Positions 1,456 through 9,675 of a stretch of DNA of 32,000 bases are shown here, piece by piece; within the stretch, counting starts at the first letter, position 1; each line of letters begins with the position of its first letter. Under the pieces are notes generated by a model. That model searched no databases and was not told where the DNA came from. It was given only the letters and a program-made list of their open reading frames with translations. The DNA lies in contig NZ_LT963434.1 in the NCBI RefSeq assembly GCF_900199515.1, forward strand, positions 993,272-1,025,271, read 5' to 3'. A program made the translations under genes and the position numbers. Source of the DNA: Massilicoli timonensis. Lineage in GTDB: Bacteria > Bacillota_I > Bacilli_A > Erysipelotrichales > Erysipelotrichaceae.

Positions 1456-2570
1456 TACAGAATATCTCCTCTGCCGACATAAGCAGGCTCTTCCACTTTG
1501 GCAACCACTTCTTTTACTCTCACGATCTTCGCCTGTTTATCCACAACGGCATTTTCCACATGCACATCTTCACCGATCGTTGCGCCCGGCAAGATCACAC
1601 AGTTTTTTACCACCGCGCCCTTTTTAATGATACAGCCTCTTCCGATCACCGAATTTTCAATCGTTCCTTCAATTTCACAGCCATTGGAAACAACTGATTT
1701 TTTCACATTGGAAGTTTCATAATACTGGGTCGGACTGGAATCATTGGTACGCGTATAGATCGGCCAATCCGGCGCAAACAGATCCTGTGCCGTTTCATAG
1801 TCGATCAAGCGCATATTCGCATCATAATAACTCTTGAAATCGGAAATCGCAGCCACATAGCCATGATGAGCGATTCCGCGAATATCCAGCTCGCTGCATT
1901 CATCGTCGATGATATCACGCAGCGTATACATAGATGAGAATTTAGCTGCTTTTTTTACCAGTTCCATAAACAGCTCTTTGCTCATGACATAAGTATCTAA
2001 TGAAATATTGCGGTTTTTCGCCGTACCGCGGTTTCTTTCGATCGACAGTACGCCCTTTTGCTTGTTCAGATTCAAAACATTGCAGTTCATAAATTCATCT
2101 TTTGCCGTATCAACATTCTGATACAAGATCGTAATATCCGCACCGCTCTCCAAATGCTTTTCCAGCAGCTTGCTGTAATCCATCGAATACACCATATAAC
2201 TCGGTGCGATGATCACATAAGGATATGGCACTTTCTCAATACATTCCATGTTATACATGAACGCAGATACATCATGGTTATACAAATCTGACTGAAGCTT
2301 GTCATCCGTATACAGGATATGCAGCTTCCCGCGTTTAGAATTGATATTGTAATGTCTACCGGTGCCCAAATGCTCCGTCAAAGAACGCGGATTTCTTTTT
2401 ACAAACACTTCGATATGATTGATTCCGCTGTTGCTCATATTAGAGATCGGAAAATCAATGGTGCGGTAACGCCCCAGAAAGGAGAAAGCGCCGATCGGCC
2501 GATGATCCTGCATGCCCTCCACATGAATATTTGATCCTGCGAAATTCACGATGCCGAATGCGTTGCACAT
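1455..2570 (-). CDS. glgD: Glucose-1-phosphate adenylyltransferase, GlgD (regulatory) subunit
   Basis: 371-aa ORF homologous in layout to GlgC (RYRTIDFPISNMSNSGI, C-terminal left-handed beta-helix repeats) but lacking the GGxGxRL nucleotide loop. Its position between glgC and glgA is typical of Bacillota. Confidence 0.85.
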   Translation of the reverse strand: MCNAFGIVNFAGSNIHVEGMQDHRPIGAFSFLGRYRTIDFPISNMSNSGINHIEVFVKRNPRSLTEHLGTGRHYNINSKRGKLHILYTDDKLQSDLYNHDVSAFMYNMECIEKVPYPYVIIAPSYMVYSMDYSKLLEKHLESGADITILYQNVDTAKDEFMNCNVLNLNKQKGVLSIERNRGTAKNRNISLDTYVMSKELFMELVKKAAKFSSMYTLRDIIDDECSELDIRGIAHHGYVAAISDFKSYYDANMRLIDYETAQDLFAPDWPIYTRTNDSSPTQYYETSNVKKSVVSNGCEIEGTIENSVIGRGCIIKKGAVVKNCVILPGATIGEDVHVENAVVDKQAKIVRVKEVVAKVEEPAYVGRGDIL

Positions 2571-2571
2571 A

Positions 2572-3711
2572 CTATTCGACCCCCTTTACACGTTTTGAAA
2601 TCAATTCGATATGTTCACTGTCAGCGCTGCCGACAACAGCTCCTTTGCCGATCTTTACACCGTCCGCAACGATTACTCGATGCAAAACAGCACCGTCGCC
2701 TACTTCGGCATCCGGCATCAGCACACTGTCATATACTTTTGCCCCTTTGCCGACCTTTGCATGCGTAAACAGCACAGAGTTCTTTACTTCCCCGTCGATC
2801 ACACATCCCTGGGTAATAAAAGCACGGTTTACCACACCGTTTTCACCGATATAGTGCGGTGTTGAAGTAACATCTTCCGTATAGATCTTCCAGCTTGGAT
2901 CGCTGAGATCCAGTTCATTGTTTTTATCCAGCAGATCCATATTGGCTTCCCATAAGGAATCGATCGTTCCGACATCCTTCCAATACCCTTTGAATTTCCA
3001 TGCATACAGGCGACGATCTTCTTTCAGCATCGCCGGAATGATGTCTTTTCCAAAGTCATGGTTGGAATCCGGATTCACCATATCCGCCAATAACATCTTG
3101 CGCAGCAGCTTCCAGTCGAAGATATAAATACCCATGGACGCTAAATTGCTCTTTGGATGCTCCGGTTTTTCCTCAAATTCAATGATGCGGTCGGTTTCAT
3201 CGGTATTCATGATACCGAAACGGCTCGCTTCCTTCATCGGTACTTCGATCACGGCAATCGTCGCATCCGCACCGCATGCTTTGTGATGGGAAAGCATCTT
3301 GGAATAATCCATTTTATAGATGTGATCACCTGACAAGATCAGGACATATTCCGGATCAAAGGTATCCACAAAGTCGATGTTCTGTGAAATCGCATCAGCT
3401 GTGCCGCGATATACGTCTAAATTCGCATCTTCCTTTTCTCGCGGCGGAAGTACATAAACACCACTGTTTTTCGCATCCAGGCCCCAGCGCTGTCCAGCTG
3501 CCACATAGCTGTTCAATAAAACCGATTCATACTGGGTCAAAACGCCTACCACTTCGATGCCGCTGTTGGCACAGTTGCTGAGTGGGAAATCGACGATACG
3601 ATATTTACCGCCATAAAAGACGGCAGGTTTCGCTACCTTTTTTGTCAGGGCATGCAGACGCGTGCCGCGACCTCCGGCCAATATCATGGCCAACATGTTG
3701 TTCTGTCTCAT
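2572..3711 (-). CDS. glgC: Glucose-1-phosphate adenylyltransferase (ADP-glucose pyrophosphorylase)
   Basis: 379-aa ORF with [10 protein letters not shown] nucleotide-binding loop, [17 protein letters not shown] and FEEKP motifs. SD-like GGGGG lies upstream of the ATG. Confidence 0.95.
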
Positions 3712-3743
3712 AATGATAACCCCCTATGGTTTCTTATACAAAG

Positions 3744-3749
3744 ATTATA
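3744..3749 (-). promoter_or_regulatory. Candidate -10 box (TATAAT) for glgCDA
   Basis: Minus strand reads gtaaaaaaagTATAATctttgta about 33 nt upstream of the glgC ATG. The -35 is weak (TAGAAT at 17 nt). A near-duplicate element gTATGATctttgta lies at 3852-3865. Confidence 0.35.
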
Positions 3750-3977
3750 CTTTTTTTACACAAAAAATTCTACTGTTTTAACGGAAATAGGCAAAAAAAT
3801 GTATGCGTTTACATAAAAAGTGCATATATCCGACTCATTTCTTTATTTTTTTACAAAGATCATACACTTTTTATTCTTCAGGAAGCGAAAACAACATTAT
3901 CAATAAATGAAGCTGCTTTCTGCTTCTACTATACACACATCCCAAAGCGAGGAAGGTCATATTTTGTCAGCAGAAAG

Positions 3978-4003
3978 TAAAAAGGCTGCTTATTTCGCAG
4001 CCT
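3978..4003 (-). terminator. Rho-independent terminator after the LRR protein gene
   Basis: Minus strand reads AGGCTGC-gaaataa-GCAGCCT followed by TTTTac, about 20 nt after the stop codon at 4025. Confidence 0.7.
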
Positions 4004-4024
4004 CCTCACAATTCATTCTGTTGC

Positions 4025-7000
4025 TTATTTCGTTTCTTCTTTCTCTTTCTTGCGGCGATAACCAAATACACCTAACAACATCGCTGATAAGAGCGTTCCT
4101 GCTCCCCATACGCCTGCCTGTGTCGTATCTCCTGTTACCACTCCGCCATTGTTTCCGTTCTTGTCCGGTGTGATCGCTTCTATGCTTCCACTGTTCTCTT
4201 CTTCACCATTGTTCAAGATCGTTCCATCCGCATTGACTGCTGCTTCCGGTGCAAGTGGTTTAACTACTCCATTTGCATCTGTCAGCTCTCCACCTTCCGG
4301 CAACGTAACCGTTCCACTTTCATCAATGTGTACTTCATTGCCATTCGGCTTGATCGTATCGCCATTCGCATTGGTGATCGTTCCATCCGGATTCACTACT
4401 GTTCCTCCGCTTGTCTCAATGCTCCCATCTTCCTTGATCGTCGTTCCTGTGCTTGGCACCTTGATCGTTGTGCCTTCATCGGTCGTGATCGTTCCATCAT
4501 TGTTGATCGTGATATCGCCTACGGTCGTATTACCATTCTCTGTTACAACTGATCCATTATCCGGAATCTTGATCGTTGTCCCGTTTTCCGTTGTAATGGT
4601 TCCATCGCTATTGATCGTCGTATTGCCTGATGTCGTTACATCTCCACTTTCCAATACTTCTGATCCTTTATCCGGAATGGTTACCGTTGTACCGCTTTCG
4701 GTGGTAATGGTACCATCCTGATTGACGGTCGTATTGCCTGGTGTAGTAAAGCTTCCATCTGATTCTGCTATTGATCCACCCGGCAAGGTGATCTCTACAT
4801 TTGTATCTCCTACCGGTACATCTTCTGCTTTGTCTACCAGTTTGATATCGACGAAGTGGATCTTTGGATTCATCTTATACATGTCATTTATTTTATAAGT
4901 ATAAGTTGCATAGTCATTTGGCTTGATACCATAAACACGAGTTCCTTCGATCCATGGCATATTATTGGCTCTAGCAGTTGCATCCAATGGTTTTAGATCA
5001 CTGATATGATCCATGATAATACCCGGGAAAGACTCATTAAGATCCGCCCAATAACCTTTCTCTTTATCATAGCCGCCGATCTCTACATCAATAGACTGCG
5101 TTACCAGGTTTGAGAAATTGTTACTGTAGTTTGTAGTAACACCATCCGGAAGATTCAGATATGCGAGATCCGTACCGCTTATATTAACTACTCTATATCC
5201 CTTATTCTTAAAGTTTGGAAGATCCAGATAATGCAGATTAGGCGTGTTGTTTATAACAATATGTCTTAATTCTAGATTCTTTATTCCTTCAAACTTAGTC
5301 AGTTTTGGACAATTACTTGCATAAATCGTATTTAATTTCCCACCATTGCTTACATCCAACACTTCTATATCTGTACGGTTAATTTCTATCTGGGTTCCAA
5401 AGTAGAAAGAATTACCATTAGGATCAGGTTCAAGTTCATCAGTATAACTCGATTCCAAATACGGCGATACAAAAGTTCCGCTTAATCCTGTTCCTCCTAA
5501 ACCGATAAAACCAAGTGTTTTATACCTATCAGCCAGTTTTAGTCCATCATTTGTTAAGTTTTTAGCATTATATAAAGAAAGAATCTGAATATTTTGATTA
5601 TCTTCTACATCAACAGAAGTCAGATTTTCACAATCTTCCGCAAATAATCCCTTGATTTTATTGCCATCAGTTCCACTAACCTTAATGCTTTCCAGCTCAC
5701 CGTTGTTATTCATGAGTACTCGATTGATGTTTTGTAAATTTTTCACTGATGAAGAATCGAAACTCTTGATCTTTGTATTCTCAATGAATAGATGTCGAAG
5801 ATTTGATAAGCTTCCTTCTATCGTATAGTTGTCTTTTGAGGATAAGTCTGTTCCATTTAGATTTAAGGTCGTAATTGTATTGTTAGTACCAAACTTCACC
5901 TTAAATCCTTTTGGCATATTCTGTAGGTTCAATGTCGTAATCGTAGTGTTAGAAGTAAGGTCTAAATCGGTATTGACATTGTTCAAGGTTAAGGTGTTTC
6001 CTGTAAAACCACTAGGAAGAGTGGTTAACTTGGTATCTAGATTTGCCAGTGATAATGATGTCAATGCAGTATAAGCATCTAAGTTTAAGTCGCTCTCTAA
6101 CTTCACATTATTAAGTGTCAGTGATGTTAAAGTAGTTCCACTTGTTGGTAGCTTCACTTCTGTTTCCGGTAAGTTCGCAAGACTTAATGTCGTCAATGTA
6201 CTATTACTAGACAGATCTAATGTAGGTGTCCCTGTCAGACTTGTCCCATCTATGTATAATGTCGTTAATGCTCCTAAGTGCTTGTCTAAGTTTGTAATGC
6301 TTGTAATTCCAGTTGCACCTGATAGGTTCAATGTTCCCATGCTCTTTCCACTCGATGGTAAACTTACGCTTGTTACCTTCGTAGAATTGCTTAAATTCAA
6401 AGTCTTGATTGCACTTACTCCATCGCCTATGCTTACATTGGTCAATGATCCTGCTCCTGTCATCTGGATCTGCTCAAAGTATCCTCCTGTTACTTCCAAA
6501 CTTGTTATCCCGGTGTTGTTTAAGCGCAAGTCTACTCCGTTATCATCTGTACATGTTAAGTTCTCTACTCCCTCTACCTTTGTCAAGGTTGGTATATCTG
6601 CCATTCTGATCAAATATAAATTGGTATTACCTGATCCAAACTTTAATCCGGTGATCTTGCTCTTGAACCCTGCTGCTTCTTTCAATGCAGGCAGGTTTGA
6701 TAGATCGATCTCTCCTTCTACTCCTGAATTGGTAAAGATCAGTTTCTGTAGGCTGCTCTTATTTAATACTGGATCTATGCTCGTTACTTTCGCTATATTG
6801 TTCAAATCTACTGTAACAAGACTATTCAGATTGCTTAATCCATCCAGTGAGGATAACTGTGCCGCTCCATTGATCGTTACACTGGTTACCCCTGTCATAG
6901 TGCTTAACCCTTCTAAACTAGTAAGGTTTGGTACACTGCTTAGATTCACTGTTGTGATCTTCTGAAACTTCTCTAATCCTTGTAGATCGGTCAATTTAGA

Positions 7001-7339
7001 TTTTACAGCATCAGCAGTTGGGTTGAATGTAGTAATATTATTCAACTCTGTCTGTGATAATTTACCATCACTATCTTTATCCCAACTACTTAAATTGTTT
7101 GCGATCCACTGTCTGATGCCTTCATCAGGAAAGTTTGTTTCATTGATCTCATACTTTGCTTCTTCCTGTGCATCTGCCAATACCTGGATACCACTACTTT
7201 CTACTTCATTTACTTCTCCTGTTTCAACAGGTTCTCCCTGTTCCATTGCATGCACCAGGTTCCCACTGATCGTGCTCATCCCTAATAATAAGGCTGTCCC
7301 TGCCGCTGCTTTTGCTTTCATCTTCTTTCTCTTGTCCAT
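4025..7339 (-). CDS. Large secreted leucine-rich-repeat (LRR) surface protein with C-terminal tandem repeats and membrane/cell-wall anchor
   Basis: 1104-aa ORF with AAGGAGG SD. N-terminal signal peptide (KKMKAKAAAGTALLLGMSTISGNLVHA). EF-hand/dockerin-like cap (DKDSDGKLSQTELNNITTF). Dozens of ~22-aa LxxLxLxxN-type repeats. Gly/Thr-rich ~36-aa tandem repeats. C-terminus is GVVTGD, then a hydrophobic helix, then RRKKEKEETK. Confidence 0.85.
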   Translation of the reverse strand: MDKRKKMKAKAAAGTALLLGMSTISGNLVHAMEQGEPVETGEVNEVESSGIQVLADAQEEAKYEINETNFPDEGIRQWIANNLSSWDKDSDGKLSQTELNNITTFNPTADAVKSKLTDLQGLEKFQKITTVNLSSVPNLTSLEGLSTMTGVTSVTINGAAQLSSLDGLSNLNSLVTVDLNNIAKVTSIDPVLNKSSLQKLIFTNSGVEGEIDLSNLPALKEAAGFKSKITGLKFGSGNTNLYLIRMADIPTLTKVEGVENLTCTDDNGVDLRLNNTGITSLEVTGGYFEQIQMTGAGSLTNVSIGDGVSAIKTLNLSNSTKVTSVSLPSSGKSMGTLNLSGATGITSITNLDKHLGALTTLYIDGTSLTGTPTLDLSSNSTLTTLSLANLPETEVKLPTSGTTLTSLTLNNVKLESDLNLDAYTALTSLSLANLDTKLTTLPSGFTGNTLTLNNVNTDLDLTSNTTITTLNLQNMPKGFKVKFGTNNTITTLNLNGTDLSSKDNYTIEGSLSNLRHLFIENTKIKSFDSSSVKNLQNINRVLMNNNGELESIKVSGTDGNKIKGLFAEDCENLTSVDVEDNQNIQILSLYNAKNLTNDGLKLADRYKTLGFIGLGGTGLSGTFVSPYLESSYTDELEPDPNGNSFYFGTQIEINRTDIEVLDVSNGGKLNTIYASNCPKLTKFEGIKNLELRHIVINNTPNLHYLDLPNFKNKGYRVVNISGTDLAYLNLPDGVTTNYSNNFSNLVTQSIDVEIGGYDKEKGYWADLNESFPGIIMDHISDLKPLDATARANNMPWIEGTRVYGIKPNDYATYTYKINDMYKMNPKIHFVDIKLVDKAEDVPVGDTNVEITLPGGSIAESDGSFTTPGNTTVNQDGTITTESGTTVTIPDKGSEVLESGDVTTSGNTTINSDGTITTENGTTIKIPDNGSVVTENGNTTVGDITINNDGTITTDEGTTIKVPSTGTTIKEDGSIETSGGTVVNPDGTITNANGDTIKPNGNEVHIDESGTVTLPEGGELTDANGVVKPLAPEAAVNADGTILNNGEEENSGSIEAITPDKNGNNGGVVTGDTTQAGVWGAGTLLSAMLLGVFGYRRKKEKEETK
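4200..4790 (-). repeat. In-frame tandem coding repeats (~105-110 bp period) in the LRR protein C-terminus
   Basis: gatcgttccatc / aatggttccatc recurs at about 4210, 4376, 4486, 4590 and 4700. The protein repeats are of the form GNTT(V/I)NxDGTITTExGTT(V/I)xIPDxGS. Confidence 0.6.
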
Positions 7340-7368
7340 TCTCTTGTTCCTCCTCCTTTGACTTCTCT

Positions 7369-7394
7369 TGCAACATAATAAACATTATGTTGCA
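7369..7394. repeat. Recombinase-site-like palindrome, copy 1 (core AAAC)
   Basis: tgCAACATAAT-AAAC-ATTATGTTGca, 30 nt upstream of the LRR ATG. Same core orientation as copy 2. Confidence 0.75.
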
Positions 7395-7432
7395 GGTACT
7401 GCTCTCTTTCTTTGTCCACTTAATAAGATTCG

Positions 7433-7458
7433 TACAACATAATAAACATTATGTTGTA
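7433..7458. repeat. Recombinase-site-like palindrome, copy 2 (core AAAC); left inverted repeat of the putative switch
   Basis: TACAACATAAT-AAAC-ATTATGTTGTA. Positions 7434-7458 are the exact reverse complement of 7634-7658. Confidence 0.8.
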
Positions 7459-7483
7459 ATAAAAAAGCACACTTGATGTGTGC
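7459..7483 (-). terminator. Terminator hairpin inside the invertible segment (acts on the minus strand in the sequenced orientation)
   Basis: Minus strand reads GCACAC-atcaa-GTGTGC followed by TTTTTTa. It sits between the recombinase gene and the LRR gene. Confidence 0.5.
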
Positions 7484-7563
7484 GAACTTCCTTTTTTCTT
7501 TATTTTCTCTAATTTCTATTACTTTTCTATCATTAAATCATAGCAAATCACTATGAAAAACGG

Positions 7564-7592
7564 TTTACAAATACTGTAAAATAGTGTATAAA
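7564..7592 (+). promoter_or_regulatory. Sigma-A-type promoter inside the invertible segment, currently pointing away from the LRR gene
   Basis: TTTACA-N17-TATAAA(T) on the plus strand (7564-7569 and 7587-7592). No comparable promoter was found in the fixed DNA between 7340 and 7433 on the minus strand. Confidence 0.45.
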
Positions 7593-7633
7593 TATCTTGT
7601 ATCATAGTTTTATAGATTATTTTTTCTATTTCG

Positions 7634-7658
7634 TACAACATAATGTTTATTATGTTGT
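7634..7658. repeat. Recombinase-site-like palindrome, copy 3 (core GTTT, inverted relative to copies 1 and 2); right inverted repeat
   Basis: TACAACATAAT-GTTT-ATTATGTTGT followed by T6. The arms match copy 2 and only the 4-bp core is flipped. Confidence 0.8.
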
Positions 7659-7662
7659 TTTT

Positions 7663-8481
7663 TTATATCAATCCCAGCCTTTCGATATCCCGCTGATAGC
7701 TCCCTATCCCCTCCTTCAAATAGATCCTTGTTGTATCCATACTGCTGTGTCCCAATAGGTCCGCTAATCTCGATACATCATTGCATACCTTATAATACGT
7801 CTTTGCATATAAATGCCTTAAATTGTGCGGATACACCTTCTCTTCCCTTACCATCGCTTTCTCCCCTAACTTCTTCATCTTCCTCCATATCGCTACCCGA
7901 TCCATGCTCTTCCCGCTCCTCGTCACAAAGATCTTCCCCCTCTCGATCTTCCTCCCTCTTACATACGCCTTGATCTTTCGGATCAGCTTCTTCGGCAACA
8001 AGATCATCCGCTCCTTCCCCTTATTATAGATCTTGATCCTTCCGCTTCGATAATTCTCTACCGTTACATACTGTAATTCACTTACCCGCATCCCTGTCGA
8101 TCCCAATGTCTCCAGCAGCAGCTTCATCCGCTCATCTCCCTGTGCTGCTTCGATCAGCCGATGATATTCTTTCTTCTTTAAGTTCTTTCGCTCTTCCGCA
8201 AATACTTCTTTCTGGATCTTGATGCTTTTCATCCGCAGTTCTTCTTTTCCGATGAAGCGAAAGTAACTGTTTAGTGATGCCAGCATGGAATTGATCGAGC
8301 GCAAGGCATACTCTTTCATCAGTTCGTTTTTATATTCCCTTACTGCTTTTTTCTCTAATGGTGCATCTTTCAGATACCGATAGAACTGCTTGACATCTCT
8401 TTCATACTTCTCGATCGTATGTTCACTTTTTTCATTCTCATACAGATATTCGATAAATGCTTGGATCTCTTTTCTTTCCAT
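7663..8481 (-). CDS. Tyrosine site-specific recombinase (XerC/D-FimB/RecV-like)
   Basis: Catalytic signature residues are present: GMRVSEL (Arg), HNLRH (His-x-x-Arg), LLGHSSMDTTRIY (His...Tyr nucleophile). The track ORF starts at 8523. I prefer the ATG at 8481 (MERKEIQ...), which has an AAGGAG SD and lies downstream of a TATAAT at 8512-8517. Confidence 0.9.
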   Translation of the reverse strand: MERKEIQAFIEYLYENEKSEHTIEKYERDVKQFYRYLKDAPLEKKAVREYKNELMKEYALRSINSMLASLNSYFRFIGKEELRMKSIKIQKEVFAEERKNLKKKEYHRLIEAAQGDERMKLLLETLGSTGMRVSELQYVTVENYRSGRIKIYNKGKERMILLPKKLIRKIKAYVRGRKIERGKIFVTRSGKSMDRVAIWRKMKKLGEKAMVREEKVYPHNLRHLYAKTYYKVCNDVSRLADLLGHSSMDTTRIYLKEGIGSYQRDIERLGLI

Positions 8482-8541
8482 TCTTTCTCTCTCCTTTGCT
8501 TTTTGTTTTTCATTATAGCGCATCCTGCTTCATTTAAGCAT

Positions 8542-8578
8542 AAAAAAAGATATGTCCACTGCTGTGTAACATATCTTT
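8542..8578 (-). terminator. Rho-independent terminator after pta
   Basis: Minus strand reads AAAGATATGT-13 nt loop-ACATATCTTT followed by TTTT, immediately after the pta stop at 8585. Confidence 0.7.
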
Positions 8579-8584
8579 ATTTAA

Positions 8585-9553
8585 TTATTGAATCAAAGTA
8601 GCCATTGCGGTAACGATTGCCATCTTATAGACTTCTTCACTCGTACAGCCGCGTGATAAATCGTTGATCGGTGCATTTAAGCCTTGCAGGATCGGTCCGA
8701 TCGCTTCATAACCGCCTAAACGAGAAGCGATCTTATAGCCGATGTTTGCGGCATCAATATTCGGGAAAATAAAGACATTGGCTCTTCCCGCAACCTTTGA
8801 CTGCGGCGCCTTTACTTTTGCCACGACCGGCGATACGGAAGCATCAAACTGCAATTCTCCATCTACCGGATACTCTAATGTAATGTTTTTCAAACGCTGT
8901 GTAGCAGAACGCACCTTATTGACACTTTCTCCCTTAGCGCTGCCCATAGAAGAATAAGACAGCAACGAAACAACCGGATCGATACCGAAGAATTTTGCGG
9001 TCTTCGCCGTTTCCATCGTAATTTCAACCAAGTCATCTTCCGTCGGTGCAATGTTGATCGAGCAATCGCCGAATACCAGACGTTCTTCACCTTTGCACAG
9101 GATAAAGCAGCTGGAAACGATGCTGTTGTTTGGTTTGGTCTTGATCAGCTGCAGAGCCGGACGCACGGTATCGGCTGTCGAGTAGGTCGCACCGCCTAAT
9201 AAGCCGTCCGCATATCCCATTTTCACATACATCGTACCGAAATAATTGGTTCCCTCCAGCATCGCTTTCGCACTTGCCTGATCTAATTTACCACGGCGCA
9301 GTTCTACCATCATACGCGCCATTTCTTCCATGCTTTCAAAATGCAGATGATCGACAATGTCGATGCCTTCAATATCTAATCCCAGATCCTGCGCCGCCTG
9401 TTTGATCTCATCGGGATCTCCCAATAATACCGGACATAAGATCTCATCATGATGCAAACGTGCTGCCGCCTGCAAGATACGCGGTTCACTGCCTTCCGGG
9501 AAAACGATTCGAATATTTTTTCCTTTGATCTCCTTAATCAGATTTTCAACCAT
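8585..9553 (-). CDS. pta: Phosphate acetyltransferase
   Basis: PTA_PTB-type sequence (IRIVFPEGSEPRILQAA, GPILQGLNAPINDLSRGC). Preferred start is MVENLIKE at 9553, with a GTGAGGA SD. The track ORF extends to 9607 without an SD. Confidence 0.9.
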   Translation of the reverse strand: MVENLIKEIKGKNIRIVFPEGSEPRILQAAARLHHDEILCPVLLGDPDEIKQAAQDLGLDIEGIDIVDHLHFESMEEMARMMVELRRGKLDQASAKAMLEGTNYFGTMYVKMGYADGLLGGATYSTADTVRPALQLIKTKPNNSIVSSCFILCKGEERLVFGDCSINIAPTEDDLVEITMETAKTAKFFGIDPVVSLLSYSSMGSAKGESVNKVRSATQRLKNITLEYPVDGELQFDASVSPVVAKVKAPQSKVAGRANVFIFPNIDAANIGYKIASRLGGYEAIGPILQGLNAPINDLSRGCTSEEVYKMAIVTAMATLIQ

Positions 9554-9675
9554 ACTAAAAGTCCTCACTTTCATCCTTCGTGTTTTATTATACCATCTGT
9601 TTATCAAAATAAAAGTATTTTGACGTACATAATTTGTTGAATTTATCAGACATTTTTACTATAATTGAACCGTTA

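Follow-up and report, generated by a model that had tools for sequence, protein, structure and literature searches.

Whether a surface protein gene that directly follows a tyrosine recombinase gene is switched on and off by recombination, and through which arrangement of DNA, is the question raised by a locus of Massilicoli timonensis (Erysipelotrichaceae). The locus lies in a stretch of 32,000 nucleotides (contig NZ_LT963434.1 of assembly GCF_900199515.1, positions 993,272 to 1,025,271), the whole of which we call the window, and its relevant genes are all carried on the minus strand: pta (8585-9607), the recombinase gene (7663-8523), an intergenic region of ~320 nt, a gene for a leucine-rich repeat (LRR) protein (4025-7339), and glgC/glgD/glgA. 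The present analysis identifies the locus as a true recombination switch with recent activity, the ON orientation of which was unseen in this species, and as a variant with three sites and four states in a widespread, mechanistically undescribed family of Clostridial switches. To the reading that site-specific recombination switches the LRR surface protein, with the promoter placed on an invertible segment designated S1, we give a probability of about 0.78.

Results

Three identical lox-like sites upstream of the LRR gene

A preliminary description of this DNA had proposed a switch with two sites, in which the adjacent recombinase inverts a 175-bp segment. Its anatomical observations proved to be accurate: the stretch 7434-7458 is the exact reverse complement of 7634-7658, both sites are palindromes with arms of 10-11 bp around a centre that reads AAAC in the left site and GTTT in the right one, the gap between the end of the right site and the stop codon of the recombinase gene (7663-7665) is 4 nt, and the left site is situated 95 nt upstream of the ATG (7339) of the 1104-amino-acid LRR protein. 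The number of sites, however, had to be corrected, because the 22-mer CAACATAATAAACATTATGTTG exists in three exact copies in the intergenic region, at 7371-7392, 7435-7456, and 7636-7657, and the copy at 7371-7392, absent from that description, is accompanied by a movable 42-nt segment, designated S2; natural contigs show two of the four states of such a layout. The three exact matches in the window compare with 0.00 expected from 100 shuffles, and a degenerate search of the 32 kb for ACATAAT-N4-ATTATGT, allowing up to two mismatches, gave no fourth copy. Sites A and B share the same polarity, while that of site C is opposite. The elements are arranged as follows.

7663-8523, minus strand: tyrosine recombinase gene, an open reading frame of 286 amino acids (Pfam Phage_integrase, 1.1e-22; N-terminal SAM-like domain Phage_int_SAM_1, 1.8e-11)
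7634-7659: site C, recombinase-proximal, TACAACATAAT-GTTT-ATTATGTTGTT on the plus strand; exact 22-mer 7636-7657, centre 7645-7648
7457-7635: segment S1, 179 nt between the 22-mers, corresponding to the 175-bp segment 7459-7633 described previously; its two ends adjoin the same side of a site, which makes it the invertible unit
7433-7458: site B, middle, TACAACATAAT-AAAC-ATTATGTTGTA; exact 22-mer 7435-7456, centre 7444-7447
7393-7434: segment S2, 42 nt; in other contigs inverted and located between the recombinase gene and S1
7371-7392: site A, cargo-proximal, the third 22-mer, with the polarity of B and inverted relative to C; centre 7380-7383
7349-7356, minus strand: ribosome-binding site of the LRR gene, GGAGGAGG
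4025-7339, minus strand: LRR cargo gene, 1104 amino acids (Pfam LRR_EndoS and LRR_4)

Only 31 nt separate site A from the ATG of the LRR gene, the ribosome-binding site included. Inverted sites that flank short intergenic segments (179 and 42 nt) beside a cargo gene constitute the layout of an inverton, and the sites themselves, with inverted arms and an asymmetric centre that is identical in partner sites, have the architecture of lox and FRT sites. The cargo protein begins with a signal-peptide-like segment and ends with a hydrophobic stretch followed by RRKKEKEETK.

The recombinase encoded next to site C

The protein encoded beside site C belongs to the tyrosine site-specific recombinases, with a PF00589 score of 81 bits against a cut-off of 27.1. 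The full catalytic signature recognized earlier is borne out by the Pfam domains and by alignment with the structures of XerA and XerD, in which R146, K168/K170, H233-x-x-R236, H259, and Y268 coincide with catalytic residues. The nearest solved structures are 4a8e (1e-27), from the archaeal XerA/XerC-like proteins, 5hxy, and that of XerD, 1a0p. All curated Xer cut-offs were nevertheless missed by the recombinase: the scores were 152 against 220 for XerA, 126.6 against 329.6 for XerD, 123.4 against 335.15 for XerC, and 54.8 against 267 for XerS. The models of tyrosine-type DNA invertases in NCBIfam, PRK09870 and PRK09871 (FimB/FimE), gave no match to the recombinase at E <= 1e-5, and among its homologues P0089 alone matched them, weakly (29.6 bits where the cut-off is 221, and 27.4 bits where it is 222).

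The true start of the recombinase is likely Met15 at 8481, giving a form of 272 amino acids, because this codon is preceded by AAAGGAGAGAG (containing GGAG) in the region 8481-8523 and most database copies are of that length; one of the cluster members, which are mostly of 272 amino acids, is WP_180963089.1 of Massilicoli timonensis. A TATAAT sequence found within the first 14 codons of the 286-amino-acid reading frame could be the -10 box of the recombinase gene itself.

Exchange of flanking DNA at the sites in natural contigs

Twelve exact-protein look-ups, performed with the recombinase, its variants in the 90% cluster, the pta product, and the LRR protein, yielded ~40 contigs from independent samples and assemblers. 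The arrangement of the window, recombinase-C-S1-B-S2-A-gene (hereafter W), was found in 14 contigs with an identical or at least 90% identical recombinase, while six contigs, again from independent samples and assemblers, have the arrangement b: recombinase-site-inverted S2-site-S1-site-gene. In all exchanges between W and b the flanks swap exactly at the 22-mer; the left flank of site C is constant, and its right flank differs between contigs. Because the sites are shorter than the k-mers of the assemblers, the difference between W and b is not an artefact of repeat collapse. Both positions of S2 were found among strains with a 100% identical recombinase, and in every strain all three sites are perfect 22-mers and the reading frame of the recombinase is intact.

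Each DNA end keeps to one side of a site, and therefore every permitted inversion, that is, C with B, C with A, or, in state b, the middle site with A, flips S1. It follows that by inversions alone W and b are connected only via states in which S1 is inverted. Such states would be recognized by the junctions recombinase end-site-AATAAAAAAGCACAC and ...TTCTATTTCGTA-site-CAAGAGAAG or -site-TACGAATC.

Several versions of the locus have two sites and lack S2 (L054, 3325-3547; L083-L086), which would fit either deletion between the direct repeats B and A or an ancestral two-site form. Contig breaks were considered as a sign of mixed orientations and rejected as such, given that L003 and L004 end at a strain-specific single-nucleotide polymorphism, the C/T in TTTGTAAAC[C/T]G, away from any site.

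Inversion of the equivalent segment in homologous loci

Both orientations of the segment equivalent to S1 were found in homologues. The locus P0088, from an uncultured Allofournierella, encodes a recombinase 46% identical to that of the window and has a three-site layout with the centre TTCA. Its 10 contigs show three of the four predicted states.

State a, arranged like W: 4 contigs
State b, short segment moved and inverted: 5 contigs
State c, short segment moved and the 240-nt segment reverse-complemented: 1 contig (L074), with 99.6% identity to the reverse complement

A TTGCAA-17-TATAAT element of P0088 faces the cargo in state c and the recombinase in states a and b. In the contigs of this locus (L065-L074, 3852-3871) the stop codon of the recombinase gene, TAA, lies inside the first site (CACATAATTTC...), which means that the gene overlaps at its 3' end with the recombination site.

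The closest sister clades of the window's recombinase, P0007 (57% identical) and P0011 (54% identical), both have a segment homologous to S1, the promoter of which faces the recombinase in all seven contigs of P0007 and the cargo in all five of P0011. When the segments of the two clades were aligned, the score was 75 in the opposite orientation and 23 in the same orientation, against a shuffle maximum of 42. S2 is recorded in both positions and orientations within the lineage of the window and S1 in one (32 of 32 contigs), while the equivalent of S1 is inverted in L074 and in P0007 relative to P0011. Two Logan contigs of the homologue P0089 (L062 and L064; Bittarella massiliensis/Clostridium sp. 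ATCC 29733) end inside a site, which would fit mixed orientations.

Predicted promoter and terminator of S1

S1 carries a putative promoter and a putative terminator at its two ends, both predicted at the level of consensus sequences.

7564-7592, plus strand: promoter-like element, TTTACA (7564-7569), 17 nt, TATAAA (7587-7592)
7457-7483, minus strand (that of the genes): intrinsic terminator, GCACACATCAAGTGTGC followed by TTTTTTATTA, at the LRR-proximal end of S1 (7483-7467 and the U run)

The promoter-like element, which is the top-scoring -35/-10 pair in S1 in the promoter scan, aims in the window at the recombinase gene and away from the LRR gene. It is kept in the paralogous modules of the species and in the clades P0007 and P0011, and the -35/-10 pair is the most conserved part of S1 among the window and these two clades. 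The putative terminator, with -9.2 kcal/mol and z -3.0, was detected by the terminator scan as well, and in the paralogous modules it is kept with changes in the loop only. No plausible fixed promoter for the LRR gene was found by eye in S2 or between site A and the ATG, where the gap of 31 nt leaves no room for one. No known riboswitch or leader RNA emerged when 7250-7750 was scanned with Rfam at E <= 1, the only match, SNORA1 with 22.5 bits, being meaningless against its gathering score of 70.

On the plus strand, site C (7634-7665) folds into a 10-bp hairpin of -8.6 kcal/mol directly followed by TTTTTTT. This feature may halt antisense transcription from S1 into the recombinase gene in the OFF state; the A run behind it is not conserved in other members of the family.

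The site family in other gut Clostridia

The same half-site with an asymmetric core of 4 nt adjoins recombinases of gut Clostridia that are 40-60% identical to that of the window, and a scan for the site through genome and metagenome collections gave copies beside recombinases 40-47% identical to it, the hosts including Clostridium sp. AM58-1XD, Dorea, Lachnoclostridium, Oscillospiraceae, and other Lachnospiraceae. In each of these cases the site is located ~0-100 nt from the stop codon of the recombinase gene, with an inverted partner 165-280 nt away. Site and homologous recombinase co-occur in ~16 lineages. The half-site TACAACATAAT, an arm of 11 bp, is nearly invariant across 34 sites (68 half-sites), and the consensus of the family site is 26 bp long, TACAACATAAT-N4-ATTATGTTGTA. 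The 4-nt centres differ by lineage (AAAC, ATAA, TGAA, GTCA), are always asymmetric, and are always identical within a locus, as they should be if strands are exchanged in the centre and polarity is determined by it.

The cargo of the family includes capsule operons of the CpsB/Wzz/tyrosine-kinase-like type (L006, L014), proteins with signal-peptide-like N-termini (L010, L015), a GGDEF/EAL protein (P0088), a histidine kinase with response regulators (P0089), and an Rrf2 regulator followed by a protein of >1100 amino acids (P0007, P0011). Among 14 family loci, the distance from the start of the best -35/-10 pair to the site that it faces is 63-84 nt, and the pair faces the recombinase in nine and the cargo in four. 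The three-site layout exists in three of the ~16 lineages; in L006 the short segment duplicates the start of the large one, which indicates that three-site layouts can arise by local duplication.

Foreign DNA joined to site C

In three contigs, the DNA on one side of the equivalent of site C belongs to neither S1 nor S2 (L039, 1-55; L056, 3347-3401; L077, 2347-2487). The DNA joined to site C at the foreign junction reads TCAGACTGTTGACAAAGTG...; L056 reads recombinase-site-TCAGACTGTTGACAAAGTGgtactt..., and L039, which derives from the same sample (ERZ26183770), reads ...cactttgtcaacagtctga-site-S1. Both of these contigs end exactly 55 nt past the 22-nt site. In L077, the L039 flank recurs as its reverse complement after the recombinase gene and the site, and it contains two terminator-like hairpins. 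These flanks suggest a distant fourth site or an inserted segment, and a search for the foreign flank in the window, all loci, and viral contigs gave nothing beyond the three contigs. The scan of viral contigs for the site itself gave four single-site matches. Solo perfect 22-mers were also observed in intergenic regions of other contigs (L019/L025/L030/L032, representing one locus; L020/L034, representing another; L007; L016; L017; L031), and within the fetched flanks no recombinase homologue was found near them. They may be solo partner sites or chance palindromes.

Discussion

Proposed mechanism and the evidence for it

If these observations are combined, the mechanism of the switch can be considered as follows. 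The Xer-like recombinase (7663-8523) would bind the 11-bp arms of the three identical lox-like sites, and strands would be exchanged in or around the asymmetric 4-nt centre. With C inverted relative to both B and A, recombination of C with B or of C with A would each flip S1, and with it the predicted promoter and the predicted terminator at its opposite ends. The state of the window would be OFF, given that the promoter aims at the recombinase gene and the terminator is expected to block read-through into the LRR gene. A flip of S1 would put the promoter 40-110 nt upstream of the ribosome-binding site, and this state would be ON. The third site would let S2 shuttle across S1, producing four states, two OFF and two ON, the ON states differing in their leaders, one with site A only and the other with site B and S2 ahead of site A. 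Both of the arrangements to which we assign the OFF state exist in natural DNA, and exchange between them took place inside the sites; inversion of S1 in this species is what we infer from these arrangements and from the homologues.

Several points weigh against this mechanism. Inverted S1 was found in none of the 32 readable contigs of the lineage that the 12 look-ups gave. The passage from W to b does not demand it either, because S2 could be excised between the direct repeats B and A as a circle and reintegrated at C, without inversion of S1. What points to the adjacent recombinase as the catalyst is a single line of evidence, the co-occurrence of the site with homologous recombinases. The promoter and the terminator of S1 are predictions at consensus level, and the first promoter scan omitted TTTACA-17-TATAAA, because that scan demands T as the last base of the -10 box. 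The earlier proposal that the recombinase inverts the 175-bp segment to switch the LRR gene therefore stands in part: the segment contains an outward promoter-like element, the sites recombine, and homologues show both orientations, but the inverted form is missing from the contigs of this lineage.

Alternative explanations

One possibility, which would still make S1 the switching element, is that the LRR gene is read through from a recombinase/pta transcript and that the orientation of S1 decides whether its terminator faces that transcript. Such a mechanism, similar in spirit to that of cwpV, can coexist with an invertible promoter, and it agrees with the co-orientation of recombinase and cargo in every family locus, with the good terminator at the cargo-proximal end of S1, and with the finding that in inverted S1 the hairpin has no directly following U run. 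A pure terminator switch, however, would have no need of the -35/-10 pair that is kept at a conserved distance from the site in the 14 family loci and is the most conserved part of S1. We therefore regard this explanation as unlikely, although it is the one among the rivals that survives best.

Slightly less likely still is a decayed or locked switch, in which inversion of S1 has ceased in this species, movement is confined to S2 (through excision and reintegration, or through rare events of the past), and the LRR gene is either constitutively silent or receives weak read-through. The single orientation of S1 in 32 of 32 contigs is what such a switch would show, and the two-site versions (L054, L083-L086) show that deletion between direct repeats happens. 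Decay is, however, difficult to reconcile with perfect 22-mers in every strain and with an intact recombinase reading frame that is identical across several paralogous modules. The presence of both S2 positions with a 100% identical recombinase implies recent recombination, and in P0088 the inverted state is likewise rare (one of 10 contigs) and yet present.

It is improbable, to a somewhat greater degree, that the locus is also a platform for cassette capture, the sites of which would, besides inversion, excise and integrate circular segments such as S2 and the foreign segment in an integron-like manner. S2 lies between direct repeats in every state, L056 and L039 (from one sample) and L077 join site C to DNA other than S1 and S2, and the stops of L056 and L039 at 55 nt past the site would fit a branch of the assembly graph at the site for k=77. 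The foreign DNA is known for only 55-141 nt beside the site, however, and the occurrence of one foreign end on both sides of the site (L039 versus L077) is unpredicted by simple integration. Part of the data is accounted for just as well by a large inversion involving a fourth, distant site.

The remaining explanation, that the palindromes are operators, hairpin terminators, or repetitive extragenic palindromic (REP)-like repeats and the enzyme is a housekeeping Xer recombinase acting on dif, has some appeal, in that each site folds as a hairpin of 10-11 bp, site C is followed by U7 on the plus strand, and the top protein profile matches are XerA, XerD, and XerC, but both halves of it are rejected as extremely improbable, because independent assemblies contain rearranged contigs in which the flanking DNA changes places precisely at the sites, a locus has three sites and a species several modules in place of one dif per chromosome, the whole module is missing in some strains (L038), and the curated Xer cut-offs are far off. 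A site adjoining the recombinase gene is by itself compatible with Xer function, given that in the XerS and XerH systems dif adjoins the recombinase gene.

With the promoter on invertible S1 as the preferred explanation, the role of the third site can be considered. It is conceivable, albeit rather doubtful, that this site is functional rather than an accident of duplication, and that the locus represents a non-coding "promoter shufflon" of four states, which would have had repeated origins in the conserved Clostridial family of recombinases and sites. The presence or absence of S2 in the mRNA leader would then set two ON levels, the two OFF states would differ in antisense transcription toward the recombinase gene, and the sites might also swap with distant partners or capture segments, as L039, L056, and L077 hint.

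Comparison with known recombination systems

The locus is functionally similar to fimS or to the Bacteroides-type invertible promoters with a tyrosine recombinase encoded in cis. In fimS of Escherichia coli, which is recombined by FimB/FimE, the promoter also lies on the invertible segment, the recombinase gene(s) are located directly upstream of the gene for a surface structure and co-oriented with it, and ON/OFF phase variation is accompanied by a strong orientation bias. The Fim recombinases are, however, proteins of ~200 amino acids without the N-terminal SAM-like domain that the window's recombinase has, and the two repeats of fimS are of 9 bp, in contrast to three self-palindromic sites of 22-26 bp. 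The RecV switches of Clostridioides difficile (cwpV, flgB, cmrRST) likewise combine a tyrosine recombinase with inverted repeats upstream of surface and motility genes in a gut organism of the Bacillota, but one RecV enzyme encoded elsewhere serves many switches, whereas each module of the present type has its own recombinase abutting a site. The repeats of RecV probably differ in sequence from the sites of the window, and cwpV acts via a terminator in the leader.

Cre/loxP and FLP/FRT share with the present sites the two palindromic binding arms and the asymmetric centre that sets polarity, as well as the rule that inverted sites invert and direct sites delete. The arms of loxP are of 13 bp with an 8-bp spacer, compared with arms of 11 bp and only four asymmetric central nucleotides here, and the window's recombinase is Xer-like, unlike Cre. 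The R64 shufflon (Rci/sfx) and the three-repeat hsdS loci (pneumococcal ivr/SpnIII) resemble the locus in having more than two sites per tyrosine recombinase, changes of both order and orientation, and more than two states. The multi-site, multi-state behavior is thus common to both, but those systems shuffle alternative coding exons (pilV C-termini, hsdS target-recognition domains), whereas the locus of the window has no such exons and would shuffle a non-coding promoter/terminator unit and a 42-nt piece of the leader. The single-recombinase Xer systems (XerA/dif, XerS/difSL, XerH/difH) are closest by sequence and agree in the palindromic 11-bp arms and in the site adjoining the recombinase gene, while they have one site per chromosome for dimer resolution. 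A single dif per replicon and a core gene are not what is found here: the module is accessory and multi-copy, has three sites, is absent in L038, and exists in pta, trmB, and clpB contexts.

A survey of the hCom2 gut community (PMC11892184, Microbiome 2025) described an inverton group 139 that is dominated by Clostridia, to which 32 of its 33 invertons belong, that is spread over 17 strains, and that is statistically linked to an adjacent group of tyrosine recombinases, invertase group 35 (PMC11892184). One of its members, in Clostridium sp. D5, has 26-bp repeats with 205 bp in between, and flipping was shown at the level of reads (PMC11892184). As far as the available text of the survey goes, taxon, size, and recombinase type agree with the family described here, the consensus site of which is also of 26 bp, and that text gives no three-site layout, site anatomy, or mechanism. 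The present family is probably identical with inverton group 139/invertase group 35, a match that is made on taxon, size, and recombinase type. Our literature search brought up no published account of the site sequence or of a promoter switch with three sites, and a text search with the site returned only unrelated primer and barcode matches. The earlier description recognized the site sequences from no described switch; the site family is not confined to this locus and is shared by a large number of gut Clostridia.

For Bacteroides, E. coli, and C. difficile, the phase variation of surface structures is well understood; it is hardly characterized in the commensal Clostridia that dominate the human gut, in which the present family would control capsule operons, adhesin-like proteins, a GGDEF/EAL protein, and regulators. 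The locus defines a compact pair of recombinase and site, with 11-bp arms and a 4-nt polarity centre, that is conserved down to 40% identity of the recombinase. The site consensus permits direct genome-wide prediction of switches, and the recombinase with its 26-bp site is a candidate for an orthogonal lox-like tool in Bacillota. The three-site layout provides a natural example of a multi-state non-coding switch.

Paralogous modules and differences among strains

The species appears to carry several paralogous switch modules. Identical recombinases (P0121, P0123, P0124) were observed in at least three chromosomal contexts, namely, PNPase/M20/trmB (L041-L047, L054), ClpB (L076, L085, L086), and pta (L052, L053, L075). 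Each recombinase gene is followed by the same switch and then, wherever the contig reaches the cargo, by an LRR paralogue of 794 to 1151 amino acids. In one sample, the module in the ClpB context (L076, ~2405-3819) contains GC-rich foreign DNA inside S1, which cuts through the promoter region and carries a gene with an adenylyltransferase domain (PF04439) such as aminoglycoside resistance genes have.

In L038 (2609-2923), pta adjoins glgC and the recombinase-switch-LRR module is absent, as revealed by comparison with 3700-4030 and 8523-8600 of the window. The module of ~4.6 kb (~3975-8560 in the window) is thus an accessory island, and the same comparison gave no copies of the site at its borders. 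In other strains (L018, 5331-6330; L022, L040-L045, L075) the switch and the LRR gene are separated by two additional small genes, one for a protein of 105-110 amino acids with one hydrophobic segment and the other for a PepSY-domain protein. The strain of the window is without both, and its LRR gene therefore comes directly after site A (equivalent region 7339-7370).

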